Origin: Minisyncoccota bacterium | GTDB lineage: Bacteria; Patescibacteriota; Minisyncoccia; Phycocordibacterales; XYD1-FULL-46-19 | Length of the DNA: 64,000 nucleotides | Direction: 5' to 3' | Assembly: GCA_040879645.1 (NCBI GenBank) | Contig: JBBDJY010000013.1 | Location: forward strand, 30,366 to 94,365 | In this document: positions 612-24,345 of the stretch, in pieces | How positions within the stretch are numbered: the stretch's first letter is position 1 | How the letters are laid out: every line of letters begins with the position of its first letter | Made by a program: the position numbers and the translations under genes | Notes under the pieces: model-generated | What the model was told of the DNA's origin: nothing | The model's database searches: none | What the model saw: the letters and a program-made list of their open reading frames with translations, nothing else

Positions 612-1709
612 TTATCGGTTTAAAGGCATAACAATATAAGAAAAATTATTATTATCACTTCCTTGAATAAATAAAGGTTTATTAGGCTCATTGAAATTAA
701 TAATCACTTCACCGGTAATTAAATTTAAAACCTCACTTAAATAGCGGGCGTTTAAATTAATTGACATTCCTTCATTGTCTATTTTTGACGGTAAAGTAAT
801 GGAATTCTCACCGATTTCTTGATTTTGTGATTTTATCGTCAGTAAACCCTTATTATCAACGGAAAATGATATTTGATTAAAACGATCCAAGAAAATATTA
901 GATATTTTAAGCGCACTAATAAATTCTTCTTTATTAATTATAATTTTAGTTTTAAATTGTTTAGGAATAATTTGACGATAATCAGGATAAACCCCGTCAA
1001 TAATTCGAGAAGTTAAAAATAATTCATCAGTGTGAAATGAAATCTGATTCTTATCGGAATAAATATCAATATTACCCTGACTGTTATCAAAAACCCTAAT
1101 TATCTCGGAAATATTTTTAAACGGTAAAATAACCGGATTAAACTCACTTTTATTATCAAGTGGAATTTTTATTTCCGCCAAACGGAAAGAATCCGTAGCA
1201 ACAAAAATTAAATTATGATTTTCTTGATAAATATAAACACTGGATATTTCCGGTTTAATATCTGAAGAAGAAGCGGCAAAAAAAACCGATCTTAACCCAT
1301 TAATTAAATCAATTGCCGGGATGGTTAATTTATTACCTTTATTAATAACCGGAATAATTGGAAAATCATCGGCCGATTCGCATTTTATAACCGTCTGACC
1401 ACTCTTGGTATTAATATTAATATTATTATTAACCGCTTCCAGACTTATTTTTTCTTCCTTAAGATTATTAATAAAATTACCTAAAATCCCAGGTTTAACC
1501 GCTAAAACCCCGTCTTTAGCCACCAGGGCCGGGATTTTTACTTCAATACCGATATCTAGATTAGTTGCCCGAATAATTAATTGTTTATTCTGACTTGAAG
1601 CGGATAATAAAATATTACTTAAAACTGTTAAAGATAAATTCCGACCGGTCATTTTTTCCGTTAAATATACTCCTCGTTGTAATTTATCTTTTAAGCATTC
1701 TAGTTTCAT
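612..1709 (-). CDS. dnaN: DNA polymerase III beta sliding clamp
   Basis: 365 aa. N-terminus MKLECLKDKLQRGV...LSLTVLSNILLSASS is typical of beta clamps. The gene sits directly downstream of dnaA. Confidence 0.95.
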   Translation of the reverse strand: MKLECLKDKLQRGVYLTEKMTGRNLSLTVLSNILLSASSQNKQLIIRATNLDIGIEVKIPALVAKDGVLAVKPGILGNFINNLKEEKISLEAVNNNININTKSGQTVIKCESADDFPIIPVINKGNKLTIPAIDLINGLRSVFFAASSSDIKPEISSVYIYQENHNLIFVATDSFRLAEIKIPLDNKSEFNPVILPFKNISEIIRVFDNSQGNIDIYSDKNQISFHTDELFLTSRIIDGVYPDYRQIIPKQFKTKIIINKEEFISALKISNIFLDRFNQISFSVDNKGLLTIKSQNQEIGENSITLPSKIDNEGMSINLNARYLSEVLNLITGEVIINFNEPNKPLFIQGSDNNNFSYIVMPLNR

Positions 1710-1946
1710 AATATAAGAATAAAAAATATTTTAAAAAACCTTTATTACTATTAGAACTGTTAATTCGGTGTATAACCGGAATTTAACCTGTGTTTTGATA
1801 ATAAATTCATATTCATGACTTGGGTATAAAGTTGGTAATAATCTTTGTTTTTAATTTTACTGTTTTTAGGTGGGGAAAAGTACCTACTTTATCAACAAGT
1901 TAATTCCTTAGATATTATTAGTTTATACACAGATTAATCCTTAATT
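1710..1946. promoter_or_regulatory. dnaA-dnaN intergenic region, candidate oriC or DnaA-box region
   Basis: 237-nt AT-rich spacer with a TTATACACA site (one mismatch to the TTATCCACA consensus) at about 1927..1935. dnaA-dnaN spacers are a common oriC location. Confidence 0.3.
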
Positions 1947-3308
1947 TCAAGTGTTATATAATTGTAATCTAATTTGATCAATTTCTTGATTTAATAATTG
2001 ATTTTGTTTGATTTCATTTTTTATTTTTTCATAAGCATGAATAACCGTCGTGTGGTCCCGGCCACCTAGTTTTTGGCCGATATAAGGATAAGAAGTATTA
2101 AAATCTTCCCGTAATAAATACATTATTATTTGTCTTGGTTTAACCACTTCTTTCCGTCTAGTTTTTTCATAAAGGAATTTTTCATCAATATTATAATAAT
2201 CAGATACAATCTTCATTACATCTTTAATGGAAACTTGTTTTTGTGGTTTAATGTTGTTTTTAATTAGAATTTTAACTTCATTAGGAGTTAAAATTTTATT
2301 TTTGGTTTTAGATTGAATAATAATCGAGTTAAGGGCTCCTTCTAATTCTCGGATATTATCTTGAATAACTGAAGCTAAATATTCCAAAACTTCATCAGAA
2401 ATAGTAAATTCCGGGCTTTTAACTTTATTTTTAATAATTGCCAGTCGAGTCTCATAATCCGGTTTACCAATATCCACAATCATTCCCCCTTCAAAACGCG
2501 AACGCAAACGATCTTCTAAATTATCTATATATTTTGGCGGTTTATCTGAAGAAAAAATAATTTGCTTATTATTTTCGTAAAAATTATTAAATAAATGGAA
2601 TAATTCCTCTTGAAATTTTTCTTTTTTAGAGAAAAATTGAACATCATCCATAACTAAAATATCATATTTCCGATATTTTTCCTTAAATTTATTAACTCGA
2701 TTATTTTGAATTGAAGAAATTAAATCCATCCCGAAATTTTCCGAGGTAATATAATAAACCTTTTTATACTCATTATTCTTTTTTATTTGATTACCGATTG
2801 CTTGAGTTAAGTGAGTTTTACCGACACCGGTACCACCATAAACAAAAAGCGGATTATAATTCATCCCCGGATTTTTAATAATTGCTTGAGAGGCGGCATA
2901 AGCAACTTCATTAAAAGAGCCAACAATAAAATTATTAAAAGTATATTTAGGATTAAGATTATTTTCCTTATTGATATATAAGTCATTTAAACCCAAATCT
3001 TCACCAATAGTCTCTTTAATATTATTTTCTATCGTCTGACATTTGTTTTTATCCTCGCTTTTAATAATAATGTATTCAACTGAATGAATAATTAAAGAGG
3101 TGTTACGCAAAGCCTTAATGATTAATTTATGATATTTATTAATTAACCAATCACGAACAAAAGTATTAGGTACGCTTAAATAGACAATACCATCATTATA
3201 TTTATAAATATGGGTATTTTTAAACCAGGTGCCGAAATTAGCTTTAGAAATGGATAATTCTATTTCTGATAAAATATCCCCCCAAAGTTTATTGTAATCT
3301 ATCAACAT
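1947..3308 (-). CDS. dnaA: Chromosomal replication initiator DnaA
   Basis: 453 aa with Walker A GGTGVGKTHL and the MDDVQFF box. The C-terminal DnaA-box binding domain is present (IGQKLGGRDHTTVIHA). Confidence 0.97.
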   Translation of the reverse strand: MLIDYNKLWGDILSEIELSISKANFGTWFKNTHIYKYNDGIVYLSVPNTFVRDWLINKYHKLIIKALRNTSLIIHSVEYIIIKSEDKNKCQTIENNIKETIGEDLGLNDLYINKENNLNPKYTFNNFIVGSFNEVAYAASQAIIKNPGMNYNPLFVYGGTGVGKTHLTQAIGNQIKKNNEYKKVYYITSENFGMDLISSIQNNRVNKFKEKYRKYDILVMDDVQFFSKKEKFQEELFHLFNNFYENNKQIIFSSDKPPKYIDNLEDRLRSRFEGGMIVDIGKPDYETRLAIIKNKVKSPEFTISDEVLEYLASVIQDNIRELEGALNSIIIQSKTKNKILTPNEVKILIKNNIKPQKQVSIKDVMKIVSDYYNIDEKFLYEKTRRKEVVKPRQIIMYLLREDFNTSYPYIGQKLGGRDHTTVIHAYEKIKNEIKQNQLLNQEIDQIRLQLYNT

Positions 3309-4906: not shown

Positions 4907-6145
4907 CTAATAGCGCAAAAATACCGACCATAAACTGCCGTCTTTTTTATTCTGCCACCAAATCATATTGTCTTTAACTTTTAGATTAACAACATCCAAA
5001 TTACGGTTAATAGAAGTTAATCTGAATAAAGTCGAGTCGTCAATGATATAAACCCAAATATCATCATTGGGAAAAGATATTTTTCCTTGATACCACTCGT
5101 CGGGATATTGACCGGCACTGATTCTTTCGGACACACCGCAATAAATGGCACCGGCATCGTTTTGCCAAACACATTTATCGGTTAAGGTTTTTATCGCCAG
5201 TGTTTTTTCCGTTCCGGTGTCTAAATTTTTTAATTTTAAATTAAGGTTATTACCGGCGCTTTCCGAATACAATAATTGCTTACCGTCGGGACTAGGTAGA
5301 GCGGTTAAACCGCTTTTATTACTCAAAATCTTATCAGTCATTTCCCGATTAAGATCCAATGAATATAAATTACGCGACAAAGACCAAGCCGGTGGTTGGC
5401 TTAATATAATTGACCCGGTACCGGCCCAACTTGCCTGCCAAGACAATAAACCGGTTCGCCAGACCTGGCCGGCACCGCTTAAATCCGGATTAGCCACCAG
5501 ACCGACAACATCATCGTTAAAGCGTTTTAAATAAAAGATTCGGCCAGTCTCACGATTAATCGCCGGTTGGGCGAGAAAATTGGATTGACGGCGGACAAGG
5601 TTATTTTTTTCAGTCTCGCCACTAATCGCTTCAAGTGGAATATTGATAGAGGTTATAACCCCATCCCGATCTTCAATAAAAGCGTAGAGATGGTTGGTAT
5701 CGGTGGTAAACAAAACCGACAGCGGATTAGCAATAGTGGTATTGGATATTCGTTTAAAGGTTAATTCTTCATCAGTTAAATCGGCGGTATAAATATGGCC
5801 GGTACTTTGTTCGGCATAAACCAAATAATCATTATCACTAATAGTGATTAATTCGTAACCGGCAATTGATTCATCGATGATTTTTTCCGGGGTGGCAATA
5901 TCTTCCGTTTCGAGGTTGTTGGTTGGAGTGGAAATGGTTTGGCCGGCATTATCACCTTCTCGGCCGGTGAAAAAATCAAATAAATTACCAACCGGGAAAA
6001 ATCCCCGATCGTCCCCCGTCTCGCCACTTGGTGTTGGTCGGGAGATTAAATAAAAACCAATCCCGGCCGCGATGACAATTAAAATAATTAAGATGGTTAA
6101 AGTTTTTTTCATATTAAAATTCAATATGCCAATGGTCTCCTTCAT
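4907..6145 (-). CDS. Membrane-anchored TolB-like (PD40) beta-propeller protein; last gene of the T4SS-like operon
   Basis: 412 aa with an N-terminal TM anchor. Repeated SPDGKQLLYSE...NLDTG-type motifs are typical of TolB/PD40 propellers. Confidence 0.5.
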   Translation of the reverse strand: MKETIGILNFNMKKTLTILIILIVIAAGIGFYLISRPTPSGETGDDRGFFPVGNLFDFFTGREGDNAGQTISTPTNNLETEDIATPEKIIDESIAGYELITISDNDYLVYAEQSTGHIYTADLTDEELTFKRISNTTIANPLSVLFTTDTNHLYAFIEDRDGVITSINIPLEAISGETEKNNLVRRQSNFLAQPAINRETGRIFYLKRFNDDVVGLVANPDLSGAGQVWRTGLLSWQASWAGTGSIILSQPPAWSLSRNLYSLDLNREMTDKILSNKSGLTALPSPDGKQLLYSESAGNNLNLKLKNLDTGTEKTLAIKTLTDKCVWQNDAGAIYCGVSERISAGQYPDEWYQGKISFPNDDIWVYIIDDSTLFRLTSINRNLDVVNLKVKDNMIWWQNKKDGSLWSVFLRY

Positions 6146-6995
6146 AAATTAACCTATTCCCATTTATTCCCAAGTCACCCAATCCTCCTTCAGCGATAGT
6201 TCTATTCATAAAATTATCAAAATTATTAGTTGACCTAATATCAACCGCCGTGCCGGTATAATGGTTACTTCCAACCGAGTGACCACCTTGTTCGCCTGCG
6301 CCGGTAATGACTATCTCACAATTACATTCTTGACTTAATCCCACTACTCCATTTATTTGATTTTGATTTAAATTGCCGACATATGTTCGGCAGGCGGATA
6401 AATTATCAGGCCGGCAAGCACCTTCATCGTTAATTAAAATTCCTCTCCTTTTTAACCTATTTCTGACTTCAAATTCATTACTCGGAACCGGGCCATACAC
6501 TCCTTCTCCTAATGATGATCCATCTCCGGGTATGGCGGTAATATCGTCTTGTCCACTAGACCCACTACCGGTATTAACTGCCACATCGGTTGATATCGTG
6601 CCGGCTCGACCGCCGAAATCAAGTGATAAGTTTATTAAATTAGGGTTAATGGTATTTAAGATAAGCCAGGCGGTTAAGGCGATTAATAAGCCGAAAAAAG
6701 CGGCACTCATTCGGCTTTTGGCATCGGCTTTAATCCCCGGAATCCCGCTAACCATATATTCAATACCGGCCCAGGTAAAAATAACTATCGATAGAACAGT
6801 GGCAATGACCAAAATGGTGGTAATGGCCGCCGCCGCATAATCCAGCAAATTACTCGTCTCGCCTTCACTCCCCCCAATTACTTCCGGCTGGAGTAAAACA
6901 TAATCCTGGGCCAAAGCCGGTATCGCCACCAATAAACCGGCAAAAAACAAGCCGATAAACAGATAAGGAATCATTTGTTTGGTGGTTTTTTTCAT
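6114..6995 (-). CDS. Membrane-anchored peptidase M15 (VanY-like D,D- or L,D-peptidase) with an N-terminus of VirB2/TrbC pilin-like topology
   Basis: 293 aa. A signal peptide (...AIPALAQD) is followed by two TM helices separated by a short charged loop. The C-terminal domain carries the LAS-metallopeptidase motifs SNHYTGTAVD (SxHxxGxAxD) and EGDHWH (ExxH/HxH). Confidence 0.6.
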   Translation of the reverse strand: MKKTTKQMIPYLFIGLFFAGLLVAIPALAQDYVLLQPEVIGGSEGETSNLLDYAAAAITTILVIATVLSIVIFTWAGIEYMVSGIPGIKADAKSRMSAAFFGLLIALTAWLILNTINPNLINLSLDFGGRAGTISTDVAVNTGSGSSGQDDITAIPGDGSSLGEGVYGPVPSNEFEVRNRLKRRGILINDEGACRPDNLSACRTYVGNLNQNQINGVVGLSQECNCEIVITGAGEQGGHSVGSNHYTGTAVDIRSTNNFDNFMNRTIAEGGLGDLGINGNRLIYEGDHWHIEF

Positions 6996-6998
6996 TGA

Positions 6999-8018
6999 TT
7001 ATTGTCCAAAAAATTCATTAAGGTTTAAATTAACCGAGGCTTGGCCGGTTTGTTTGGGATTTCTTGGATTATTAACCTCAACGGATATTATTGATGACCC
7101 GGCTGAAGATTGGTTGGTTTGGAAGGTGATTTCTCTTTGGCGGCTAGAAATATCTTTAATTACTTCCTCACCGGCTTTCCAAATATATTGTAGTTGAGAC
7201 AAAACATCATTAATTGGGAAATAAAACGGTTCGGCTTTAAGTGAAATAACATCGCCCTCGGCTTGATGGTTTTGATTATTTAAAACCTTGGCCTGATTAA
7301 CGCCACTTAACGGCTTAACCTCATATAATAAAATCTCGGCTTGATTGGCGTTAATGGTTAAATTACCACTGGCGGTAATCCCGGATGAAGGATGGCTTAC
7401 TTTGACGCCGACGACCGCTCGCTCGGTTTCGGGATTAAGTGTAAAAGTGATGGTATTTCGACCGAGACCGGAAGAACCGGTTAAGCGAGTATTGTTTCTC
7501 GTCCATTCAAAAACCAATTCTCGAGCGTCAATTAATTGGTCAAAAACCCTGATATTCGGCTCGGCCATAACCGTCAGTAAAGAGCCGGCCGTCGGCAGGG
7601 CCGCTCCTCGGTACCAGTTTGGAATGAAAGAATTTGCTTCAAACAACAATTCAACCTCGGCCGGCCGGAAAGTCAGATTTTTGACAATAAAACGATTATC
7701 CGGGGTGGTAATAATGGCATCAACCGAAGTTATCCAACCAACCCGACCATTGCGGAAGGAAAATTCAGCCAAGCCGATACCCTCGGCCAAAACCTCGTCA
7801 TTAACCGCCCAAGTTACCTTACTTAAATTAAGATTAAAACCAAAACCTTTTAATTTGACGGTAATCATTTCATTGGGTTTTGGCTCTTTCGGCTTGACTT
7901 CGGCCTCCAGAGTTCCGCCAACGGTACTTTCTTGGTAATTAGCCGAAGCGATGACCGGAAAAATCCACAAGATTAAAATAATCAGCAAAACGATTTTATT
8001 TTTTAAGATATTGGTCAT
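6999..8018 (-). CDS. Secreted or membrane-anchored all-beta protein, hypothetical (possible VirB8-like channel component)
   Basis: 339 aa with an N-terminal hydrophobic anchor and a beta-rich remainder. It sits inside the T4SS-like operon. Confidence 0.45.
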   Translation of the reverse strand: MTNILKNKIVLLIILILWIFPVIASANYQESTVGGTLEAEVKPKEPKPNEMITVKLKGFGFNLNLSKVTWAVNDEVLAEGIGLAEFSFRNGRVGWITSVDAIITTPDNRFIVKNLTFRPAEVELLFEANSFIPNWYRGAALPTAGSLLTVMAEPNIRVFDQLIDARELVFEWTRNNTRLTGSSGLGRNTITFTLNPETERAVVGVKVSHPSSGITASGNLTINANQAEILLYEVKPLSGVNQAKVLNNQNHQAEGDVISLKAEPFYFPINDVLSQLQYIWKAGEEVIKDISSRQREITFQTNQSSAGSSIISVEVNNPRNPKQTGQASVNLNLNEFFGQ

Positions 8019-8053
8019 TACTCTATTTTAAACTAATTTGTCCGGATAAGGAA

Positions 8054-8398
8054 TCATTTGGCCCCGGTCAGCGCTTTTTTAAATTTGGGCTTGGCTGATA
8101 AGGATAAACCGGTTTTGTCTTCAGTCCGGGTAAAAATAATGACCGCGATGACGCCGGCGGTAATGCCGGGTAGAAAAGGGATAATCGCCAATACCCCGGC
8201 GGTGAGGTAAGTCAGCATTTTTCTGGTACTGATTAAGGGAATATTTTTTAAATAAAACCAAAAACCGAAAACCATAAAAGCGGTGGCGGTGGTGATAAGG
8301 TTAACAATGGGAATTAAGGCAATCAAGTCAATTAATAAAGCGGTGACAATCATTCCGCTGGCGGATAATCGACTGATGCGGTAAGTGGTTTCAGCCAT
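8054..8398 (-). CDS. Small integral membrane protein, hypothetical
   Basis: 114 aa with a long N-terminal hydrophobic hairpin, a second TM and a basic tail. It ends 6 nt after the VirB4 gene. Confidence 0.45.
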   Translation of the reverse strand: MAETTYRISRLSASGMIVTALLIDLIALIPIVNLITTATAFMVFGFWFYLKNIPLISTRKMLTYLTAGVLAIIPFLPGITAGVIAVIIFTRTEDKTGLSLSAKPKFKKALTGAK

Positions 8399-8404
8399 AA
8401 TTGT

Positions 8405-10237
8405 TTACTGACTGTTATTAAATTCGTCCTTGGCTTTTTTAATCGCCAGAAGTTGCGACGGATCGGAAGTGATAATTTGATCTTCGGTATAAGAAGCAAT
8501 GATTTTAATCGCCACTCGTTTCAGGCCGGCAAAAAAGATACCCTCACCGACACTTGATTCCAATAATAGAAACTTTTCTTCCTCGGTTAAATTGAAAGTC
8601 TTTTGCACCAAGTCAATGGTGGCCGGTGATTGCTTTAAAATGAGTTGAATTGATGAGTTGGTGATAATCGGCGTACCGTAAGGCGAACGGAGGAAATCAC
8701 CGACATCCTGGGTAATGGTCGCCACCCCCAAAAAGTATTTTCGGCCGCGTTTAACCAAAGAAAAGAGAAAAGAAGCGGTATCTTCTTGTTTCATCATCCA
8801 CCAAGCCTCATCAACCACCAAGAGGCGTTTTTTTAAGTTGCGTCGGATAGTATTCCAGATATGATGCATTACGATATACATTGCCACCGGTTTTAATTCG
8901 TCTTCCATATCTCGGACGGAAAAAACAACCATATTTTTATTGATATCGACATTGGTCGGCCGGTTGATAAAACCGGACCAAGTGCCTTGAGTATATTTAC
9001 CCAAGCGCTGGGCCAAGGACTCCCCGCCTTCCATTCCGGCCAAGACCAATTCCAAGTCGGACAAAAGCGGTGCCGGTTTGTTGGTAAAATCGGAATCGGC
9101 GGTAATATCTTTTAAGGCGTAAGTTTCGGTAATCGCCCGGTCAATGATTGAATCTTCTTCGGCTGACAATCCGCCGAGCATAATACGGAATAAGCCGACC
9201 AAGGTGATGGTGTTTGACCGCAAAACATCAGCCGGCGACTCGTCTTCGCGCGGGAAGGGTAAGTCAAAAGGATTGATATGGTGTTCGGAGGTCAGTGAAA
9301 CATTAAAATAACGCCCACCAACGGCTTCGGCTAAAAATTCGTATTCTCGTTCCGGGTCAATAACAATGACATCGGTTTCGTACATGAGACTGCGCAAAAT
9401 TTCCAACTTGGTGGCATAAGATTTACCGGCGCCGGATTTGGCAAAAATGACCGAATTGTAATTTTCCAACGAGAAGCGGTCAAAAAGCACCAATGATGAA
9501 TTGTGGCGATTAATACCGTAAAGAATTCCCTTATTGGAAGTCAGGTCAAAAGAAACAAACGGAAACAGACTAGATAGTGGTGAGGAGTTTAATTTGGAAT
9601 TTATCCCCAAAAGATCTTTGGCGATGGGAATCGTGCTCTTGAAACCGGCTTCTTGTTGGAATAGGGCCGGTTTTAAATAAACCAATTTGGAATCCAAGAT
9701 TGATTTCAGATCCGATTCGGTATTGTCCAAATCATCTTCATCTTCGCCATAAATGGTAACATATAAACCGACATCAAAGATTTTTTCTTGAGCTTGTTGG
9801 AGTTGATTACGCAAGTTTTCAATGTCTTCATGGGCGGTGTCCAATTTAGGGTCTCGAACATAACCTTTTTCTTCCCGGATACTGATTTGACTTTGGACTT
9901 CAGCCAGTTTTTTTTGCAATTGCTTTAAAGCCAAACTGGAATCAATCGGGTGGATAAAAATAGACACATCAAAAACCCGATCCAAGTTAATCACCGGCGA
10001 AAACCACTCCTCGTTTAAGAAACGAGGATAAGAGATAACAAACATCGTTCGGGCCATTTTTTCGCCCAAATTAAGGTTTTTTGGACTGATTTTAAGGGCC
10101 GAGGGAGCGATAATATCACGCAATTGCAAAACTCCCATCTCATAGATGTCTTGCGGTAAGACCGGGGTGATAAATTCCTCGGCCTGTGATTGTTTTTTTC
10201 TGCCGAATAAAGCCATATTAAGTGGCGCTCGGGACAT
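8405..10237 (-). CDS. VirB4/TraC/CagE-family T4SS ATPase, C-terminal 610-aa part
   Basis: Walker A GAGKSYATK, Walker B LLVVDEAWWM (the DEAW motif of VirB4), and a CagE_TrbE_VirB-like N-terminal region (YPRFLNEEWFSPV). Confidence 0.85.
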   Translation of the reverse strand: MSRAPLNMALFGRKKQSQAEEFITPVLPQDIYEMGVLQLRDIIAPSALKISPKNLNLGEKMARTMFVISYPRFLNEEWFSPVINLDRVFDVSIFIHPIDSSLALKQLQKKLAEVQSQISIREEKGYVRDPKLDTAHEDIENLRNQLQQAQEKIFDVGLYVTIYGEDEDDLDNTESDLKSILDSKLVYLKPALFQQEAGFKSTIPIAKDLLGINSKLNSSPLSSLFPFVSFDLTSNKGILYGINRHNSSLVLFDRFSLENYNSVIFAKSGAGKSYATKLEILRSLMYETDVIVIDPEREYEFLAEAVGGRYFNVSLTSEHHINPFDLPFPREDESPADVLRSNTITLVGLFRIMLGGLSAEEDSIIDRAITETYALKDITADSDFTNKPAPLLSDLELVLAGMEGGESLAQRLGKYTQGTWSGFINRPTNVDINKNMVVFSVRDMEDELKPVAMYIVMHHIWNTIRRNLKKRLLVVDEAWWMMKQEDTASFLFSLVKRGRKYFLGVATITQDVGDFLRSPYGTPIITNSSIQLILKQSPATIDLVQKTFNLTEEEKFLLLESSVGEGIFFAGLKRVAIKIIASYTEDQIITSDPSQLLAIKKAKDEFNNSQ

Positions 10238-10892
10238 CCCGTTCGCCCGGATTAAAGACTCGGAAATATAATTCGACCAGTTCTTCAGTCCCTAAAATGG
10301 CGGTATTAACGCCAAAACGGCTTAAACCTTGTTCAATGACGCTCATCCGCTGTTCCAATTGAATCTTGTTTTCTTCAAACGGATCATCTCCTTGGTCGGT
10401 TTTTGGCCGATCTTTTTTCCGGCCGAATGGTAATTTAGCCCAAAGTGAGTTGCGGTCTTGGAAAATCGGCGGTGAATAAGGAATGACGATGAAAAAATTT
10501 TTAGTCATTACTTTGGTTGATTGGGTAAAACTTTTGATAAACTCCATATATTCCCGGGTCTGAATTTTAATTAAATCATTGGTTTGGTTTTTTAAGCGTT
10601 CTTCAATCAGTTTCAAATATGGCCGAATATCCAATTTGCGTGATTGGATGAATATTTGGATGTCAAAATCCAAAGAATTAAGAAAATTTTGATATTGCAT
10701 AATAATCGCCGTTTGTTCGTCACTGGATTTAAGAGAAAAGTTAAGCGAGGAGGCAATCATCACCGCCCGAAAAGAACCGTCATTCAAGATAACAACCTGA
10801 TCGCGTATTTCTTTGATCGAGGTGAAGTCTTGGGTTGCTTTAGTGGTTTTATTAGCCATTATTTTACCTTTTCTTTTACATCTAAATTCCAA
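10218..10892 (-). CDS. VirB4-family ATPase N-terminal domain fragment (split or frameshifted gene)
   Basis: The 224-aa ORF overlaps the next ORF by 20 nt in a different frame. ILNDGSFRAVMIASSLNFSLKSSDEQTAIIMQYQNFLNSLDFDIQIFIQS matches the N-terminal domain of Gram-positive VirB4/TraE-like ATPases. Confidence 0.6.
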   Translation of the reverse strand: MEFRCKRKGKIMANKTTKATQDFTSIKEIRDQVVILNDGSFRAVMIASSLNFSLKSSDEQTAIIMQYQNFLNSLDFDIQIFIQSRKLDIRPYLKLIEERLKNQTNDLIKIQTREYMEFIKSFTQSTKVMTKNFFIVIPYSPPIFQDRNSLWAKLPFGRKKDRPKTDQGDDPFEENKIQLEQRMSVIEQGLSRFGVNTAILGTEELVELYFRVFNPGERDVPSAT

Positions 10893-11263
10893 GATAGGTC
10901 TTCCAACCGGCTATTCGACAGTCGGGGCAGGGCCGGCTCATTACTGTTTTCTTTATTTCCGCCGACACTTTTGGTTTTAATTTTTTCTGATTTTCGCCAG
11001 ATATATAATTTAGCGGTGAGTAAGTAACGGAAGAACATTTCAACCACATGAATAAACGGTCGGTTGTTAACTTGGTAAAAAGCCAAAGCCAAACCGAAAG
11101 CGATAATTATAATCATCGGGATAATGGCCAAGTAAATAGGTAATAACGCGTAGAAAATAAAAGCCAAACCGCCACTACCGGCCAGGTAGAGAAATTGTTT
11201 AAAAGTTAGGGGGCCGAAGATTCGGTCCTCAATCTCAATAAATTGTGGCACTTGAAAATTCAT
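10859..11263 (-). CDS. PrgI/VirB3-like small membrane protein
   Basis: 134 aa. MNFQVPQFIEIEDRIFGPLTFKQFLYLAGSGGLAFIFYALLP followed by two TMs matches the PrgI family. It lies immediately upstream of and overlapping the VirB4 gene, as in Gram-positive T4SS. Confidence 0.6.
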   Translation of the reverse strand: MNFQVPQFIEIEDRIFGPLTFKQFLYLAGSGGLAFIFYALLPIYLAIIPMIIIIAFGLALAFYQVNNRPFIHVVEMFFRYLLTAKLYIWRKSEKIKTKSVGGNKENSNEPALPRLSNSRLEDLSWNLDVKEKVK

Positions 11264-12004: not shown

Positions 12005-14623
12005 TTATGAATTTCCTAAGTCGGTTGGCGGGTTCTTTTTCTTGGCTTTCCGCGCCGCGCCGGCGGTACTCTCGAGATAAGCTCTAGCTTCCGGCATGCC
12101 GTTACCGGCTAGAATTTCCTTCTCGACTTTACCCCAAGTCCCACGGGAAATCCCCTCTCCTTGAGTGGCGGCTCTTTGAATGGCGGCGACATCCTCTTTG
12201 TTTAAGAGTTTGATGACCGCTTCATTTTCCAAAATTTGACTGTCGAGGGCCGCCACTTGTTTACTGCTCAGTTCATTTAATTGCGTGGTCAATCGGTTTA
12301 AGTCGATTGGCGCTCCGTCATTTTGATTTCTGATGGATTCCCCGATGCCATCCATAGCTTGGCGGACAGTATCACTTACTCCGACTTTTTTCATTTCGGT
12401 CACCAGTTTATTTTGGTCTTCAGCCGACAAAGAATATTTAAGACCGATATCTTTATTGGTTGTTGGATCAGCGGTTTCTTTGGTAATTTCTTCGGCCGCT
12501 TCCAAGTAGCCGGGTTCAACTTTTCTAGCGCCGGCGGTTATTTCTGTTTCCAATCCGGCCCGATCAGTATTACTTAAGTTGCCATATAGAATTTTGCGAT
12601 CGGCCGGATCCAAGGATACATAGAATTTACCTCGCTCTTCCCGATTTCCTTTATCTTGATATTCTCGTTTAAAGCGATTACCGATTTCTTTTTCTATGCT
12701 GTCTTTCTTTTCTCCCTTTAATCCTTGACGCAATTCCGTAAGGACATTAACCAATTCGGTATTACCCGATTGGCGGGCGGCCATTTCCATATCCGCCTTT
12801 TCGCGATCAGGTAGTCCTTCATACATCTTCTTTCGATCTTCTTTACCGCCAATCATTAAGAGTTTTTCACCAACATTCTTTAAGTACTCGGCCTTTTGTT
12901 CCGGATTCATACCCTTGGTGGTCTCCATTCTCCTTTCTTGGCGCTTCTTAAGGCGGTCTTCATAAGAGGTTTCGCCACCGAACTTCAGGCCGGCCGTCTT
13001 TTGAGCGGTCTTTTTGACTAAACCGCCGATAACCGGACTCTTGGCCGCCCAAGATTTGAGTCGATCTGAGCCGGCAATTTTATTAGCCGTTTTGCCGGCG
13101 GTATAGACACCGGCACCAGCAACAGTACCTATTCCGGCTTTCTTCCCCCACTTTTTTGAACGATCAACAGCAAAACCTTTAGCCCAACTCCCGCCGTGAG
13201 CACCGAGTTTGGAAGCGATGATAATCGCCGCTAAGAGAAAGCCGACGAGGAAGATGAACATAATAGTGTCTTGCAAAGCCCCACCCCAACCTTCGCTTGC
13301 GGCCATAATGTCATGGCGATTATCGGCAATTTTCAAAGTAATGAAAAGCATCACCATAAAGACCGGCGCGAATATCGCTTGATTAGTTAATTCTTTAACC
13401 CATTTGTCAAAAGTGTCCCCTTTCAATTTTGGTATGACATAACCGACAAAAGCCAAAGGTGCCAAGATAATTAACAGGAGGAGAATTATAGTACGGATGA
13501 TGAATAAAACGGCGGCGGCAAGAATAACCAAAGTGGTAACGATTATCAAAATAGACGAACCGAGTGCGCTGATAATAACTTTATCAAAACTCAAACCGCC
13601 GGTTTGACCAAAGACGGGCGCTTGGCCGGATTTAGCGCCAACGAATTGACTAGGACCGACACCGGTAATAAAAATAGCACTAATATCCGGCGCAGTGTTT
13701 CCATCTGTTTCTGTCCCGATATTATTGTAAAAAGAAACGGAAATAACATTGGAAACATCAATCACCACGCGAGTCAGGACGGCGCTAAAGTTGACCAAGA
13801 GGGCGATGATAATGATATGGCCGATCATTTTTTTGGCTTGGCCGCTGTTGATTTGCAAAATGGTGCTGATGGCGATATAAAGGAGGATAAAAATAAAAGC
13901 GATATTGGCCAGATCGCGGACCATCCGCCAACTTTCGGCGACAAAAGTCATATCAGCCAAATCTTTGAAATTAACGATTGATAATTGAATACTCCAATTA
14001 AAAAGTATGCCGGCGAAATCAAGGGCCAAACTTAAAAGCCATAAAGTTAAAGAGGCCAGCCAGGCGACTCCTTCAGTGATACAAGCTCCAATACTAAAAT
14101 TCGTCAAATTGGTGCAGGTAGACACCCCATCTCTCCTTATTTGATCAACAGCCGCAGTGCTTCCGCTCCAATCATCTTGGCGAACAGTAGATAAAGCTTG
14201 GTTGTTTTCCTCTATTTTTTCTCTAAAATCCTCTATGTTTTGTTGAAGTTCAGACAATCTTTGTTGTTCTTCCGAGGTGGCGGAGCGATTTTCTGCCGCG
14301 ATTTGTGATTGGATTGTTTCAATTTCATTTTGATTTTCTCCTAGCAACCTATTTAATTGCTCGTCGAGTCGTTGGTGCATCTCCTCTACTTCTTGGATAC
14401 TTTCTCTGTCCCGAAATATAGCGAGAAGAGGTCGATCAAACACCATGCCTATCATATAGTCGTCCGCGGTAAGTACCATATCCCAGATATCTCCCCAATT
14501 AATAAAAGCGGATGCCGGAATTGGTGCCGACAGAGTCAATGCCAATAAGGCAATAATTACTACCGTTTTTAAGTTTCGGCGGTTAATTGCCGAGAGTAAT
14601 TTCTTTGGTGATTGGATCGCCAT
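12005..14623 (-). CDS. Large polytopic membrane protein, VirB6/TrbL-like candidate
   Basis: 872 aa. A signal or TM is followed by a coiled-coil ectodomain, then at least 6 TM helices, then a long charged cytoplasmic tail. This architecture and operon context fit Gram-positive VirB6 analogues. Confidence 0.5.
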   Translation of the reverse strand: MAIQSPKKLLSAINRRNLKTVVIIALLALTLSAPIPASAFINWGDIWDMVLTADDYMIGMVFDRPLLAIFRDRESIQEVEEMHQRLDEQLNRLLGENQNEIETIQSQIAAENRSATSEEQQRLSELQQNIEDFREKIEENNQALSTVRQDDWSGSTAAVDQIRRDGVSTCTNLTNFSIGACITEGVAWLASLTLWLLSLALDFAGILFNWSIQLSIVNFKDLADMTFVAESWRMVRDLANIAFIFILLYIAISTILQINSGQAKKMIGHIIIIALLVNFSAVLTRVVIDVSNVISVSFYNNIGTETDGNTAPDISAIFITGVGPSQFVGAKSGQAPVFGQTGGLSFDKVIISALGSSILIIVTTLVILAAAVLFIIRTIILLLLIILAPLAFVGYVIPKLKGDTFDKWVKELTNQAIFAPVFMVMLFITLKIADNRHDIMAASEGWGGALQDTIMFIFLVGFLLAAIIIASKLGAHGGSWAKGFAVDRSKKWGKKAGIGTVAGAGVYTAGKTANKIAGSDRLKSWAAKSPVIGGLVKKTAQKTAGLKFGGETSYEDRLKKRQERRMETTKGMNPEQKAEYLKNVGEKLLMIGGKEDRKKMYEGLPDREKADMEMAARQSGNTELVNVLTELRQGLKGEKKDSIEKEIGNRFKREYQDKGNREERGKFYVSLDPADRKILYGNLSNTDRAGLETEITAGARKVEPGYLEAAEEITKETADPTTNKDIGLKYSLSAEDQNKLVTEMKKVGVSDTVRQAMDGIGESIRNQNDGAPIDLNRLTTQLNELSSKQVAALDSQILENEAVIKLLNKEDVAAIQRAATQGEGISRGTWGKVEKEILAGNGMPEARAYLESTAGAARKAKKKNPPTDLGNS

Positions 14624-17600
14624 TGTTGGTTGTACACCTTAACTGGTAATTGGTTTTTGGTTTGATGGTAATTGTTCCCGTCGTCGGCCGGAAATTAAAA
14701 AGGTATTTATTGAATTCATTCCTCTGAATAGTGTTTTCGTTAGTGGAACTGATGGTATTATTAATTGTTTGTTTAAAAGTCTCCACCATCCCGGCCTTAT
14801 CTCCGCCGTCTGCGTGAATTTGGATGGCGACGGAATAGGGATCTCTGGCTCCGGCTGAGGTTGAGTTGGCATTGGGGCCGAGAGCGATCCTAAAGGTGTC
14901 ATTACCTTGGATATCATCAGGCATGGTAATGGTCGTTATTTGATGACTGCCGTCATTGGCTGATTGGGAAATTACCGTCCCGGTAACAATTCGAGTGATA
15001 TCACCCGGTCTTTCTCGTAAAAAGTTAACACCGAAATTAAGCGGTAGAGTTATTTCTCTTTCTCCATTACTATCCAAAGTTTCACCATCGGTGACAATCG
15101 GAACAATCCCCGATCCGGTCGGATTACCGGCCGGCCAATTGTTATCGGCAACACAAGTGTCTATGCCTTGCCCTTCCCAGTTTAACACGGCGATGTTGTT
15201 GCCGGCGGCAATTTGATTGGCCGTCGGTTTGGCGATATTAAAAGTCAGTTCGGGTGCGGTGTAAGTTTCGCGATTACGCAATGATGATAAAACATCAAGA
15301 ATTCTCTGAATCATATCGCCGGCTCCTCCACCACCGGCGGCGGCGGCCGGACTGCCTCCCCCCCCACCGGTGCTTTGCGGTTTAAAACTCAAGACCTCTT
15401 GAGCGGTTGGTTCATTACCCGGCGCAAGATCACCCGGTTCGGGGTCGGTATAGAGTTCTTGTCGATAACTGAAAGCATCGGCCACGCTCTCTTTAACTTG
15501 AATTGCCGGCGTGGTAATTTCCCATTTGGCACAAGCTCCACTTGCTGTGGGTTCAATACAGTTTCTGATTGGTAGGTACCCTTGACCGGCGACCAGTTCA
15601 TTACGGAAGTTTTCCTCGGCCTGTCTTTGGCGCAAACTCAAAGCTGTTTGATTAAGCATAAAAGAGGTGGCCGGATTGTTGGCCTCAAACGGATTATTGA
15701 TGGCAATTAAGTTTTGGAAAACATCAGCGGAACCGGTATTGCCGGAAACAAAATTATTGTAAACTTCTCGGCTAATACTTGAGCGTGGAATGTCCGGTTG
15801 GCTGATTTGTCGGCGCAGGGCGGCGGCGGTTTCGGCCTTGAAAGCATCTCCCGATTCTTCTCCTTCGAGTTGGTCTAAATAGACTTGATTGGTTTCCGGT
15901 TGGATAACTTCTCTTAGATATCTTTCGGTGTCGGTAACATAGAGGGGCGATTCGGTACCTTCGCCATCAGTTTTGTGCCCCCGGTCGACCAAGTCGGCCA
16001 GTTCATGGCGGTATTGTTCAATATTACTGGCCGCTTGCCGGCGTAAATCGGGATTTTCCATTACCTCTCTTTGTTCGGCCGCCGTTTGGATGCGTTGGAT
16101 GGATTTTAGATACATACACATCTGGACAGTTAATTCCTGGATACTTTTAGTGCTTTCATCAATATTTTGATTGCTGGACAAAAGCGGACCGTCAACTTCT
16201 TTAACCGGAACATATAGACCACCACCTAAGCCGGGAATTAAATTAAGACCGGGAAGAGATAAACCGCCCAGTCCGCCGGTTAGGGCTTCAACCGCACCGC
16301 CAACCGCTTCTCCCAGTGGACCGGTTAAAGAACCGAGGTTTAATCCCCCGAGAACATTTTCGGTCATACTGCCTAAAGCGCCATTAAAAGCTTCACCGAC
16401 ACCGCCCAAGACATTATTAAAAACGCCGGTTACCGGATCTAATACCGTCCCCATCACCGAATCAACCACCTCATTTAAGGGGTCCAAGACCGTCCCCATG
16501 ACCGAATCAACCACATCATTCAGAGGCGCTAAAACACTGCCGGTAACCTGATTAATTAGACCGTTGGCCGAGCCTAAAAGCGAACCGGTTAAGTCATTTA
16601 CCGTTGTGTTTATAATATTACTGAATTGATTATTAACTCCGGCCATCAGTTGATTCATATTGGTCCCGCCCAAAATCTCGGTGACCGCTTGATTAACAAA
16701 ACCACCAGCCGAACCGCCAATCGAACCATTACCCAAGCCTTGGCTTAGTTGGGCAACAATCTCGTCAAGTGCCCCGCCGTTATCTTCCAGGACGGTGGCT
16801 AATTGTTCGCCGAATATACCGGTAAAATCTTCAGTCAATAAATTGTTTTGATTGTTGATACTGGCGACGGCTTGGGTGGATATTTCCGCCAATAAATCGT
16901 CATTTAATTGCTCCAATACTTGAGCGGTTAGGCCGTCAAGGCCGGCGGTTTCAGTAGTTAGAAAATCAAGGGTAGTTGCCGACAGGTCACGATTGAGAAT
17001 TTCCGGTAAATCCGTTTCAATCGCCCCGGGTAAATTTTCAGTCATCACTCTCTCCAGGGCGGTCGGCAACCCTTCTTCCAAAACACGGCCAAAAGCATCG
17101 GGTAAAGCTTGGTTAAGGGTTCGTTGCAGGGCATTGGGTAAATGAGTTTCAACTGAAGTGGTAAAAGTATCGCGGAATATTTGTTCAAAAGTTTCGGCGT
17201 CGATTGTTTGCCCGGGATTTAGATTTAGATTAGCGGCCAGGGCTTCTTCAAAACTCGGTCGGGTGGCCGTACCGAGACGAAGAAGGCGGGATAATTGATC
17301 CGGTAAATTGTTCTGAATTCCCCTCTCCAGTTCGGCCGGTAATCTTTCGGTTACTTCTCTCTCCAATTCAGCCGGTAAATGTTCATTAACCGTTTCTTGG
17401 GTGATGGTGGCCAGCCCGTTATGAGCGGCTTGACCCAGGGCCCCACCGACTTCACCACCGCCACCTAAGCCGGCTTGGGCTAAACACTCTTGCCGGTCCT
17501 CGTTTTGTAATTGCTCAATATAATCGGCTTCACTCTCCAGGGCTTCTTGGTCGGTGCCGGTCCTCTCTTCCAAACTTGGCATCGTTTCCAGATGTTGATT

Positions 17601-17723
17601 AGGGTCTTCCTCTTGGGCAAAAATATTTCTAACCGAGTCATTGAATACCGAGTAATAGATGAGGCCGGCACCGGCGCTTACCACCAGGGCGGTGATAATC
17701 ATTTTTTGTTTGGTCAGATTCAT
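14583..17723 (-). CDS. Giant secreted or surface protein with LPxxLxR tandem repeats and Gly-rich repeats
   Basis: 1046 aa with an N-terminal TM or signal. About 11-aa periodic LPAELER/LPNALQR/LPTALER motifs, repeated DVVDSVMGTVLDPLNE units and Gly-rich linkers. Overlaps the downstream gene by 41 nt. Confidence 0.6.
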   Translation of the reverse strand: MNLTKQKMIITALVVSAGAGLIYYSVFNDSVRNIFAQEEDPNQHLETMPSLEERTGTDQEALESEADYIEQLQNEDRQECLAQAGLGGGGEVGGALGQAAHNGLATITQETVNEHLPAELEREVTERLPAELERGIQNNLPDQLSRLLRLGTATRPSFEEALAANLNLNPGQTIDAETFEQIFRDTFTTSVETHLPNALQRTLNQALPDAFGRVLEEGLPTALERVMTENLPGAIETDLPEILNRDLSATTLDFLTTETAGLDGLTAQVLEQLNDDLLAEISTQAVASINNQNNLLTEDFTGIFGEQLATVLEDNGGALDEIVAQLSQGLGNGSIGGSAGGFVNQAVTEILGGTNMNQLMAGVNNQFSNIINTTVNDLTGSLLGSANGLINQVTGSVLAPLNDVVDSVMGTVLDPLNEVVDSVMGTVLDPVTGVFNNVLGGVGEAFNGALGSMTENVLGGLNLGSLTGPLGEAVGGAVEALTGGLGGLSLPGLNLIPGLGGGLYVPVKEVDGPLLSSNQNIDESTKSIQELTVQMCMYLKSIQRIQTAAEQREVMENPDLRRQAASNIEQYRHELADLVDRGHKTDGEGTESPLYVTDTERYLREVIQPETNQVYLDQLEGEESGDAFKAETAAALRRQISQPDIPRSSISREVYNNFVSGNTGSADVFQNLIAINNPFEANNPATSFMLNQTALSLRQRQAEENFRNELVAGQGYLPIRNCIEPTASGACAKWEITTPAIQVKESVADAFSYRQELYTDPEPGDLAPGNEPTAQEVLSFKPQSTGGGGGSPAAAAGGGGAGDMIQRILDVLSSLRNRETYTAPELTFNIAKPTANQIAAGNNIAVLNWEGQGIDTCVADNNWPAGNPTGSGIVPIVTDGETLDSNGEREITLPLNFGVNFLRERPGDITRIVTGTVISQSANDGSHQITTITMPDDIQGNDTFRIALGPNANSTSAGARDPYSVAIQIHADGGDKAGMVETFKQTINNTISSTNENTIQRNEFNKYLFNFRPTTGTITIKPKTNYQLRCTTNNGDPITKEITLGN

Positions 17724-18600: not shown

Positions 18601-19416
18601 ATGAAAAAATTTGTCGGTTTTTTGTTTCTGGTGCTTGGTTTTTTAATCTTGGGTCAAACGGCCGAAGCGTTTTTAACTCGTGACCTAACGCTTGGTAGTC
18701 GGGGTGAAGATGTTCGCCAATTGCAAAAATTCTTAAACCGATCTGGCTCCCCGGTGGCTTCAGTCGGCCCCGGTTCACCGGGACAAGAAACGGCTTTTTT
18801 CGGCCAATTAACCAAACAAGCGGTTCGTCGCTATCAAGAATTGCATCAGGCGGAAATTTTGGCGCCGATTGGCCTCGCCACCGGCACCGGCTATGTCGGC
18901 CGGCTGACTCGGAGGCAGATTAATTTGGCGGCCGATTTCGCTGACCATCAGCCGGTGACCGATACGATAACTCCGTCGCCGGATAGTTCGGAGCCGGAAA
19001 TCTTGGTGACCGAACCGCTCGTTTCCAGGGCCAAAACGAATGAGCCGACACCAAAATCGGTGTCGGCTGAAACTTCCGTCTTAAATAATAACCTGACCCC
19101 CGACTTTTCTCTTCCTTCACCACCGCCAAGATCGGCCACCATGAGTCTATTCTTAGTCAACCCTTCAACCGGTCGACCGGGAACAATGGTAACTATTGCC
19201 GGCGAGGGTTTTGATACCAAAGCCAATACCGTCTATACCGGTAGTGAAGTTTTGTCGGCCATACCGTCGGCCGATGGTCAAAGTCTGACCGTGACAATTA
19301 ACAGTCCTTTTACCGGCGAAGCTGATCCCGAGGGTTTTGATTTACCCCTGCGTCTTTATGTGGAAAATGATACCGGCATCAGTAATCCGCTTATTTTTAA
19401 TTTAGTTTTTGATTAG
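18601..19416 (+). CDS. Secreted protein with a PG_binding_1-like peptidoglycan-binding domain and a C-terminal IPT/TIG-like domain
   Basis: Signal peptide present. LGSRGEDVRQLQKFLN...FGQLTKQAVRRYQ matches the putative PG-binding repeat. Confidence 0.55.
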   Translation: MKKFVGFLFLVLGFLILGQTAEAFLTRDLTLGSRGEDVRQLQKFLNRSGSPVASVGPGSPGQETAFFGQLTKQAVRRYQELHQAEILAPIGLATGTGYVGRLTRRQINLAADFADHQPVTDTITPSPDSSEPEILVTEPLVSRAKTNEPTPKSVSAETSVLNNNLTPDFSLPSPPPRSATMSLFLVNPSTGRPGTMVTIAGEGFDTKANTVYTGSEVLSAIPSADGQSLTVTINSPFTGEADPEGFDLPLRLYVENDTGISNPLIFNLVFD

Positions 19417-23349: not shown

Positions 23350-24345
23350 TTGATTTTGATTGTTATCTTTTTTAAATTGGTTACGCCGGCTAATGCCGGC
23401 GTTATGTCGGTGTTTAATAATTTCTTCGGCACCGAAGAAATTATTCGTCAAAAGTCAGCCATTAATTCTCAAAACATTCCCCTGCTTCAATCGGCCTCAA
23501 CTTTGGCCGCCGGTTATGGCCGGGGTGGCGGTGGCACGACAGTGGTCAAGGGTAGCTATTTGGAGGCGGCGACCGGGCCGTTATCAACTTCGCCCGATAT
23601 TACCACTCCGCCAAGTGACCAGATTAGTGTTTATGTTGTCCGGCCCGGCGATAATTTATCGCAAATCGCCGAGATGTTTAAGGTTTCGGCCAATACCATC
23701 CGTTGGGCTAACGATATTAATCGGAATGATGTTATTCAAACCGGTCAGGTCTTGGTTATTCTGCCGATTTCCGGTCTTAAATATACTATCAAAGAAGATG
23801 ATACTTTGGCCGGTATCGCCAAAGAGTTTAAGGGCGATTTAAGTGAAATCGCCCGTTTTAACGGTCTGGAAACCGGAGCTCGCTTGACGGTGGGCAGTGA
23901 AATAATTATTCCCAATGCCGATCTTCACACCAGTCCCGTTTCGCGGCCGGCCGGTGGGGCGGTGGCCCGGTCAAATTCTTCTTCGGTCGGCAATACCGGC
24001 GGTTACTTTATTCGTCCGGTACCGGCCGGCGCCGTTCGGACGCAAGGTATCCACGGTTATAATGGTGTTGACTTGGCCGCCGCTCATGGTTCCGATATTT
24101 ATGCCGCCGCCGCCGGAACGGTGATTATCAGTCGGGCCGGTAGTTGGAATGGCGGTTACGGTAATTATGTTGTTGTTCGTCATGATAACGGAACCCAGAC
24201 TCTTTACGCTCACTTAAGTGCCAATCTCGTCAGTCAGGGTCAAACCGTCGTGGCCGGACAAGTTATCGGCCGGATGGGTTCAACCGGATTTTCCACCGGT
24301 AGTCACTTGCACTTTGAAGTCCGCGGTGGCACTAATCCTTTTTAA
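23350..24345 (+). CDS. LysM-domain peptidase M23 (peptidoglycan endopeptidase)
   Basis: Two LysM repeats (YVVRPGDNLSQIAEMF and YTIKEDDTLAGIAKEF) and M23 motifs (HGYNGVDLAAAHGSDIYAAAAGTV and GSHLHFEV). Confidence 0.85.
   Translation: MILIVIFFKLVTPANAGVMSVFNNFFGTEEIIRQKSAINSQNIPLLQSASTLAAGYGRGGGGTTVVKGSYLEAATGPLSTSPDITTPPSDQISVYVVRPGDNLSQIAEMFKVSANTIRWANDINRNDVIQTGQVLVILPISGLKYTIKEDDTLAGIAKEFKGDLSEIARFNGLETGARLTVGSEIIIPNADLHTSPVSRPAGGAVARSNSSSVGNTGGYFIRPVPAGAVRTQGIHGYNGVDLAAAHGSDIYAAAAGTVIISRAGSWNGGYGNYVVVRHDNGTQTLYAHLSANLVSQGQTVVAGQVIGRMGSTGFSTGSHLHFEVRGGTNPF

Follow-up and report, generated by a model that had tools for sequence, protein, structure and literature searches.

The stretch of DNA analyzed here (the window) comprises 64,000 nucleotides from a Minisyncoccota bacterium belonging to the ultrasmall Patescibacteria (CPR) (GenBank assembly GCA_040879645.1, contig JBBDJY010000013.1, positions 30,366 to 94,365 of the forward strand), and its gene at 6114..6995 on the minus strand encodes a 293-amino-acid (aa) protein in which a type IV secretion system (T4SS) pilin is fused to a peptidase-like domain. 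The gene was delimited from the list of open reading frames (ORFs) and the sequence, with an ATG start and a stop codon at 6114-6116, and a protein identical to its product is named "MAG: pilin [Candidatus Paceibacterota bacterium]" at NCBI (P0001). The product was resolved into four parts, all encoded on the minus strand: a predicted Sec signal peptide (residues 1-29; 6909..6995), a mature two-helix T4SS_pilin module (residues 30-122; 6630..6908), a disordered linker of ~36 residues rich in Gly, Ser, Thr, and Asp (residues 123-158; 6522..6629), and a 135-residue C-terminal LAS domain of the Hedgehog/DD-peptidase (M15A-like) type (residues 159-293; 6117..6521), the last being assigned from a structure model, Foldseek, and profile searches. 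The linker varies in both length and sequence among homologues.

Hydropathy analysis (Kyte-Doolittle, 19-residue window) revealed three hydrophobic peaks at residues 20, 64, and 107 and none beyond residue 125. The first hydrophobic segment follows MKKTTKQ and ends in A-L-A, with Q-D past residue 29, which is a typical Sec pattern by hydropathy and charge and coincides with a modelled helix (residues 3-28); cleavage at this site is probable, and homologues keep AQ(D/E)Y.LL.P directly past it. The mature N-terminus (residues 30-53) is acidic, with five D/E and no K/R, and includes Y32-x-L-L-x-P. The two transmembrane segments (residues 54-78 and 98-116) are separated by a 19-residue loop (79-97) carrying K88, K91, and R94, and placement of this basic loop in the cytoplasm would leave both mature termini, including the C-terminal domain, outside it. 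A full-length AlphaFold2 model built on an 18-sequence alignment agreed with this layout, showing helices at residues 3-28, 50-82, and 86-116, a disordered stretch at 123-158 (predicted local distance difference test [pLDDT] <50), and a well-predicted C-terminal domain. Thus, the signal peptide, polar segment, and paired helices with a charged loop proposed in a preliminary description of this gene were all recovered, and together they match the signal peptide, two-helix hairpin, and basic loop of PF18895 pilins.

The same description had compared the N-terminus with VirB2/TrbC pilins, and the evidence for a T4SS pilin proved stronger than had been claimed. Residues 60-116 matched the Pfam family T4SS_pilin (PF18895) with 29.0 bits, above the gathering cutoff of 26.6, while the TrbC/VirB2 family (PF04956) aligned end to end at a sub-threshold 13.1 bits (cutoff, 27.9; E value, 0.12); the only NCBIfam match of the query was a weak one to a Mycoplasma ICE pilin-like protein (E value, 0.098). 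A profile of the pilin part (A3) retrieved 590 proteins, and the best 120 of these were mostly PF18895 proteins of 116 to 250 aa with E values of about 1e-29 to 1e-38, stand-alone Patescibacteria pilins among them. In addition, 147 fused and 44 bare pilins share a signature of Y32, L35, P37, Y53, G77, Y80, K89, G102, L103, and a W-L-I-L-N-T-I-N-P block. Judging from these profile matches, the N-terminal half truly belongs to the T4SS pilins of Patescibacteria (PF18895 family) and is not a generic signal anchor. It shares the signal peptide, the hairpin, the WLILNTINP-type motif, the origin-proximal virB4 cluster, and even the gene slot with described PF18895 pilins such as SEML1_0014-0019, but these measure about 120 to 200 aa with at most a short low-complexity tail, whereas the window protein adds a folded 135-residue domain. 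At the exit of the second transmembrane helix, WLILNTINPNL (residues 110-120; 6651-6683) forms the most conserved stretch of the pilin family and is nearly invariant in bare pilins; such conservation exceeds what the end of a membrane helix would need, and the stretch could be a processing, docking, or packing site.

The T4SS operon context assumed in the preliminary description was also confirmed. Read in the direction of transcription on the minus strand, the fusion is preceded by PrgI (VirB3-like; 10859..11263; Pfam PrgI, 3e-10), a 224-aa protein (10218..10892), a VirB4-type ATPase (8405..10237; Pfam P-loop_TraG at 7e-25, with AAA_10, DUF87, and TraC_F_IV), a polytopic membrane protein of 114 aa (8054..8398; 117 to 183 aa in relatives), and a secreted protein of 339 aa with no assigned family (6999..8018; 326 to 349 aa in most relatives and 244 aa in L004). 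It is followed by a membrane-anchored protein of about 401 to 412 aa, likewise with no assigned family (4907..6145, likely start at 6112; 387 to 448 aa in relatives). The last three of these genes occupy conserved slots. The 224-aa protein had no Pfam match at an E value of <0.01 and lies in the position of "TraC-like" genes, with PF26593 found on its equivalents in L001, L003, and L004. Packing is tight, the 339-aa gene ending 3 nucleotides (nt) upstream of the pilin and the downstream gene probably starting 1 nt past the pilin stop. The operon also holds large polytopic and secreted proteins, followed by yidC, rnpA, dnaA, and dnaN, and dnaA (1947..3308, minus strand; Pfam Bac_DnaA, 4e-67) marks the cluster as origin-proximal. 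No informative Pfam or PDB sequence match was obtained for the neighboring 339-aa, 401-aa, and 872-aa proteins.

This arrangement recurs in divergent genomes. In four loci encoding homologues with 26 to 38% identity (L001-L004), the fusion occupies the identical position in the order PrgI, TraC-like, VirB4, small membrane protein, a gene of 244 to 394 aa, fusion, a gene of ~390 to 420 aa, yidC/rnpA, and dnaA; only L003 has two extra genes ahead of the fusion, one of them a pilin-lysozyme paralogue. In two further loci (L005 and L006), the same slot is filled by bare pilins of 193 and 151 aa (P0199 and P0250) with short low-complexity tails only, and no LAS domain was found within 10 kb on either side of them. 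Therefore, the window protein is, by position, the pilin of its virB4/prgI cluster and not an accessory gene.

For the C-terminal domain, the preliminary description of a VanY-like M15 peptidase held in its LAS-type fold and motifs and proved imprecise in its VanY part. S-N-H245-Y-T-G-T-A-V-D252 fits the pattern SxHxxGxAxD and contains H-x6-D, while H288-W-H290 provides H-x-H; H-x6-D plus H-x-H is the defining motif of the Hh/DD-peptidase group (PMC6027127). The first active-site block, T-G-A-G-E235-Q-G-G-H239-S-V-G-S-N-H245-Y-T-G-T-A-V-D252 (6240..6293, minus strand), was delimited by H-x6-D and the invariant E235 and H239, and the second, H288-W289-H290 (6126..6134, minus strand), by conservation. 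Among 153 representative domains, each <50% identical to the others, C194, C202, E235, H239, H245, D252, and H288 are conserved in 100%, W289 in 93%, and C224 and C226 in 93%, while position 290 is occupied by His (87%) or Asp (13%). The putative zinc ligands are thus kept on alignment, and since the expected metal or catalytic residues are so strongly constrained, the domain is LAS-type. The ExxH motif that had also been suggested was not recovered; three residues ahead of H290, the 153 relatives show no conservation, with Asp in 43% and Asn in 28%. VanY and M15_4 (M15B) carboxypeptidases share the SxHxxGxAxD block and the clan (MD) with the window protein, and true VanY or M15_4 domains occur on sister pilins (L023, L039, and L055) and on P0029, but the window protein matches neither family and has H-W-H in place of ExxH.

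The nearest relatives are instead of the Hedgehog/M15A type. A single-sequence search of PDB gave weak Hedgehog matches (E value of about 0.3) resting on GAGEQGGHSVGSNHYTGTAVDI, aligned to a 22-residue Hedgehog stretch that the window block GxxE..GH...S.HY.G.AVD resembles, and a 21-sequence domain profile improved the match to Ihh/Shh to an E value of 0.015. Pfam analysis of 21 relatives found Peptidase_M15_4 in 5 (best E value, 2.5e-5), VanY in 6, Peptidase_M15_3 in 3, and HH_signal in 2. The isolated domain was modelled by AlphaFold2 with a pLDDT of 91.4 and a predicted TM-score (pTM) of 0.87, and the top 12 Foldseek matches of this model in PDB were all Hedgehog N-domains (E values from 4e-3, probability of 0.96 to 0.99, TM-score of 0.40 to 0.47), followed by the Streptomyces albus zinc DD-peptidase 1lbu, the VldE C-domain, MepA, the endolysin LysECD7, and a phage L-Ala-D-Glu peptidase. 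Among the viral models of BFVD, the best match was a Hedgehog-like microvirus protein (E value, 1.4e-4; TM-score, 0.52; root mean square deviation, 2.8), and numerous entries at lower ranks were annotated as "Peptidase M15A C-terminal" or as phage wall hydrolases of other kinds. Taken together, the model and profiles indicate an LAS-type domain of the Hedgehog/DD-peptidase kind and not VanY proper, with predicted zinc binding and activity. It shares H-x6-D, H-x-H, an upstream His, and the fold with the M15A-like LAS proteins of MEROPS (1lbu, the Hedgehog N-domain, and phage M15A proteins), but it differs from Hedgehog/M15A domains in its low identity (~20%), in matching no Pfam model, and in having Cys pairs of its own. 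The "bacterial Hedgehog" proteins described earlier are >50% identical to Shh (PMC6027127), and the window domain is far more distant. Beyond the canonical LAS ligands lie an invariant Glu and His upstream of H-x6-D (E235, 6291-6293; H239, 6279-6281) and two conserved Cys pairs (C194, 6414-6416, with C202, 6390-6392; C224, 6324-6326, with C226, 6318-6320); these define a distinct subfamily, and disulfides or a second metal site are conceivable roles for the Cys pairs.

These affinities also bear on whether the domain is an enzyme at all. It might bind stem peptides or another surface ligand without cutting it, anchoring the T4SS or a pilus to a wall, and a role as a noncatalytic adhesin would fit both the Hedgehog N-domains as closest sequence and fold matches, their enzyme role being debated (PMC6027127), and the occurrence of a Calx-beta binding domain as cargo in the same slot. 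Conservation of the five putative metal or catalytic residues plus E235 across the 153 diverged representatives argues for retained chemistry, and the other cargo domains are mostly enzymes; we therefore consider an adhesin very improbable.

The domain combination, which the preliminary description did not recognize, proved to be anything but rare. An exhaustive HMMER search with the domain profile found 2,619 representative clusters (50% identity) at an E value of ≤1e-3 and 1,722 at ≤1e-10; a word-indexed search with the domain profile had returned only 6 proteins. A chance ORF or a pseudogene was ruled out by this conservation and by the conserved syntenic position. The pilin module was present on 126 of 139 new top representatives (~90%), with typical lengths of 275 to 310 aa, indicating that the pilin-LAS architecture is common in Patescibacteria.

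The same counts bear on a simpler explanation, in which the hairpin is only a leader or Sec-dependent anchor: once the linker is cut, the LAS domain would be set free and work in growth and division like any autolysin or wall-turnover enzyme, mechanistically unconnected to secretion. Such a pro-enzyme would explain a linker that is long, disordered, and variable, and stand-alone secreted homologues without a pilin do exist, e.g., Streptomyces P0038 (hhalign probability, 99%). Classical P-type pilins, such as TrbC and VirB2, undergo C-terminal processing. A simple anchor would have no need of the pilin signature residues, however, and these are kept in the fused proteins; moreover, the gene keeps its place within the T4SS cluster even between very divergent genomes, and ~90% of the domain family's top representatives are fused to a pilin. 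We thus regard an autolysin unrelated to secretion as quite improbable.

Species-representative genomes were scanned by motif with the pilin alignment, which yielded 80 loci (L007-L086), almost all from Patescibacteria, holding 101 pilin ORFs and mostly showing the prgI, virB4, pilin, and dnaA arrangement. The tails past the pilin module range from 0 to about 970 aa in this virB4-dnaA slot: 15 ORFs have tails of <40 aa, 11 of 40 to 100 aa, 36 of 100 to 200 aa, 27 of 200 to 400 aa, and 12 of >400 aa. The LAS domain of the window protein was present in 11 of the 80 loci. Pfam analysis of 20 other long-tailed pilins identified VanY (L023 and L039), Peptidase_M15_4 (L055), SLT (L013), YkuD (L011), and Calx-beta (L025), together with a weak SLT_2 match (L070), and no recognizable Pfam cargo domain in 13 of the 20. 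P0029 is a further pilin-M15_4 fusion, and because its hhalign match to the LAS domain profile was weak (E value, 0.009), the LAS and M15_4 domains on pilins are not demonstrably of the same subfamily. In L003, the contig of homologue P0007, the pilin-Phage_lysozyme paralogue lies two genes upstream of the pilin-LAS gene (L003:7750-8766 and L003:10001-10933). Over about 315 nt, the mature pilin cores of the two show 100% identity, in contrast to their unrelated signal peptides and heads; a recent duplication, gene conversion or concerted evolution of the core, or an artifact of assembly could be the cause.

Two of these loci hold several pilins. L038 (Paceibacterota; 849-3085 and 7567-8648) has five short bare pilins in an array and one pilin-LAS gene; therefore, one locus can have LAS-pilins beside plain ones, and the former may act as minor pilins. 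L085 (Candidatus Microsyncoccus archaeolyticus) has four tandem pilin ORFs with tails of 309 to 972 aa and no peptidoglycan-related Pfam match. The name of this organism points to archaeal hosts, and this single case hints that the cargo may track the host envelope.

Comparable domains have been linked to T4SSs before. Epibiotic growth of S. epibionticum requires its T4SS cluster SEML1_0006-0019 (Wang 2023); SEML1_0007, directly downstream of virB4, has a C-terminus (951-1105) classified as "Hedgehog/DD-peptidase" and is essential by transposon sequencing, SEML1_0006 contains lysozyme-like and cysteine-proteinase domains, and the cluster includes six bare pilins (Wang 2023 supplements). SEML1_0007 resembles the window protein in domain class and in belonging to the virB4 cluster of a Patescibacterium, but it has a length of ~1,113 aa and no pilin annotation, its genome having the six separate pilins instead. 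A domain of the Hedgehog/DD-peptidase class thus appears to be a conserved and functionally required companion of this machine, and in the window this domain is fused to the pilin. Outside this group, PrgK (pCF10), TraG (pIP501), CwlT (ICEBs1), and TcpG (pCW3) share a membrane-anchored, extracytoplasmic peptidoglycan-active domain encoded in an MPF-FATA-type T4SS operon (PMC12102498). Unlike the window protein, they bear SLT, CHAP, NlpC/P60, or glucosaminidase domains on a simple transmembrane anchor, not a pilin, and their systems are without a pilin. PrgK also includes a LytM (M23) domain, with an LAS-type site. By operon, predicted topology, and domain class, the window protein fits this functional class of T4SS-associated wall hydrolases (VirB1, PrgK, TraG, CwlT, and TcpG), which is not a homologous family. 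PF18895 pilins, LAS peptidases, and T4SS-associated hydrolases are all known, and their combination was found described nowhere: no account of a pilin-peptidase or pilin-hydrolase fusion was found in the literature searched, which included the Patescibacteria T4SS survey and a recent review, and InterPro architecture tables may list such combinations uncommented.

These results lead us to read 6114..6995 as a pilin-tethered peptidoglycan peptidase giving the T4SS a VirB1-like wall-opening function, an interpretation to which we assign even chances. The protein would be inserted into the membrane by Sec, with the signal peptide probably cut after Ala29, and the two pilin helices would form a membrane hairpin with its basic loop in the cytoplasm. 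Both mature ends would then lie outside the cytoplasmic membrane, the C-terminal domain being held on the ~36-residue disordered tether. H245, D252, and H290 are the likely metal ligands, and H288, H239, and E235 are likely catalytic or second-shell residues. The pilin module would deliver the peptidase to the VirB4/VirB6 machinery, where it would cleave cross-links or peptide stems in the adjoining peptidoglycan and so supply the VirB1-like activity for which most Patescibacteria T4SS clusters seem to have no separate gene. The wall attacked may be that of the cell itself, that of a host, or both. The idea of a wall-remodelling component, already raised in the preliminary description, is reinforced by the wall-active theme among sister pilins (Phage_lysozyme, SLT, YkuD, VanY, and M15_4) and by the essential SEML1_0007. 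Moreover, most genomes with VirB2-like pilins are without VirB1, from which a survey inferred that the putative pilus may do without it (PMC12102498); this scarcity would be explained by a wall-cutting enzyme built into the pilin.

Several results weigh against a tethered peptidase. No Pfam or NCBIfam family matches the C-terminal domain of the query, the fold matches are moderate (TM-score of 0.40 to 0.52; best E values of 4e-3 in PDB and 1.4e-4 in BFVD), and hhalign of the domain profile with an Shh N-domain sequence covered the first motif only (46% probability). Vertebrate Hedgehog illustrates that the same fold can serve binding or signalling and not a demonstrated enzymatic role. On the pilin side, the profile found no match among PDB sequences at an E value of ≤10, solved VirB2 and TraA structures included; a fold search with the full-length model gave mostly designed helical bundles and ferritin-like hairpins, with MepA only at rank 10, and was uninformative for this part. 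Homology to the structurally known VirB2/TraA is consequently not demonstrated. Pilus formation by Patescibacteria T4SSs has been raised in the literature as a possibility only. Finally, cargo in the same slot includes nonhydrolases, as YkuD has a transpeptidase fold and Calx-beta a binding fold; therefore, the common denominator may be surface display and not wall cutting.

Display is also central to a bolder explanation, according to which the VirB4 machine extracts the fusion as a true polymerizing subunit, so that a filament is assembled that displays peptidase heads on its outer surface or at its tip, digests the host wall, and opens a conduit for uptake or delivery. The fusion is the positional orthologue of the cluster's pilin, no other pilin was found in the 64-kb window, and in roughly half of the genome loci with an LAS domain, the LAS-pilin has no second pilin within 8 kb to its left or right. 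An armed filament of this kind would also be consistent with the outward-facing termini predicted for the hairpin, with the great variation of cargo between related species, as expected for host-directed functions, and with the requirement of S. epibionticum for its T4SS and pilins in epibiotic growth. The identical L003 cores with different heads (lysozyme and LAS) would meet a need for identical packing surfaces, but they could also be a recent duplication or an assembly artifact. A globular head of 135 residues per subunit may clash sterically with VirB2-type packing, the ~36-residue tether would also suffice for a purely membrane-anchored enzyme, and no report was found of a pilus seen for these systems. 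We hold such a filament to be doubtful, and no less so the additional display of lysozyme or SLT heads where paralogues exist. Its widest form, in which the VirB1 and VirB2 functions are merged into a modular pilin carrier with a polymerizing core and interchangeable heads, forming an armed filament through the host wall and so making the T4SS essential for epibiotic life, seems to us unlikely.

Elsewhere in the window, the genes are mainly housekeeping ones, along with genes for peptidoglycan synthesis. Adjacent EPSP_synthase-family (MurA-like) paralogues occur at 58344-59675 and 59844-61148 (both on the plus strand), near a Ddl-like ATP-grasp gene (57138-58145) and a gene for a PASTA-domain protein (55783-56829). 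Two wall-related genes flank the T4SS cluster, one encoding a LysM and Peptidase_M23 protein (23350-24345, plus strand) and the other a PG_binding_1 and TIG protein (18601-19416, plus strand). The MurA-like, Ddl-like, PASTA, and M23/LysM genes indicate that the organism makes peptidoglycan, which favors the reading of the fusion as a tethered peptidoglycan peptidase. Within the T4SS operon, a large secreted protein of 1046 aa (14583-17723, minus strand) had no Pfam match and contains internal repeats such as "LPxxLER..." and "VVDSVMGTVLDP" as well as long stretches rich in Gly; a role at the surface or as an adhesin is possible. A mobile conjugative element was considered as the origin of the cluster and rejected, as the 64-kb window encodes neither a relaxase nor a coupling protein and the cluster has housekeeping genes as its neighbors, which fits the chromosomal, origin-proximal, relaxase-less T4SSs described for Patescibacteria (PMC12102498).

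The function of Patescibacteria T4SSs is called completely unknown in the literature, and the fusion offers a concrete, testable handle on what this machine does at the cell surface. A wall-cutting enzyme that is often part of the pilin itself, as the protein and the census around it suggest, would be an answer different from that of the survey, in which the pilus may not need VirB1, and among conjugative-type pilins the protein would be the first one known to bear an enzyme. Its C-terminal domain, found in about 1,700 clusters at 50% identity, mostly fused to pilins, represents a large unannotated branch of the Hedgehog/DD-peptidase superfamily. If the fusion does polymerize, it would form a new kind of surface filament.

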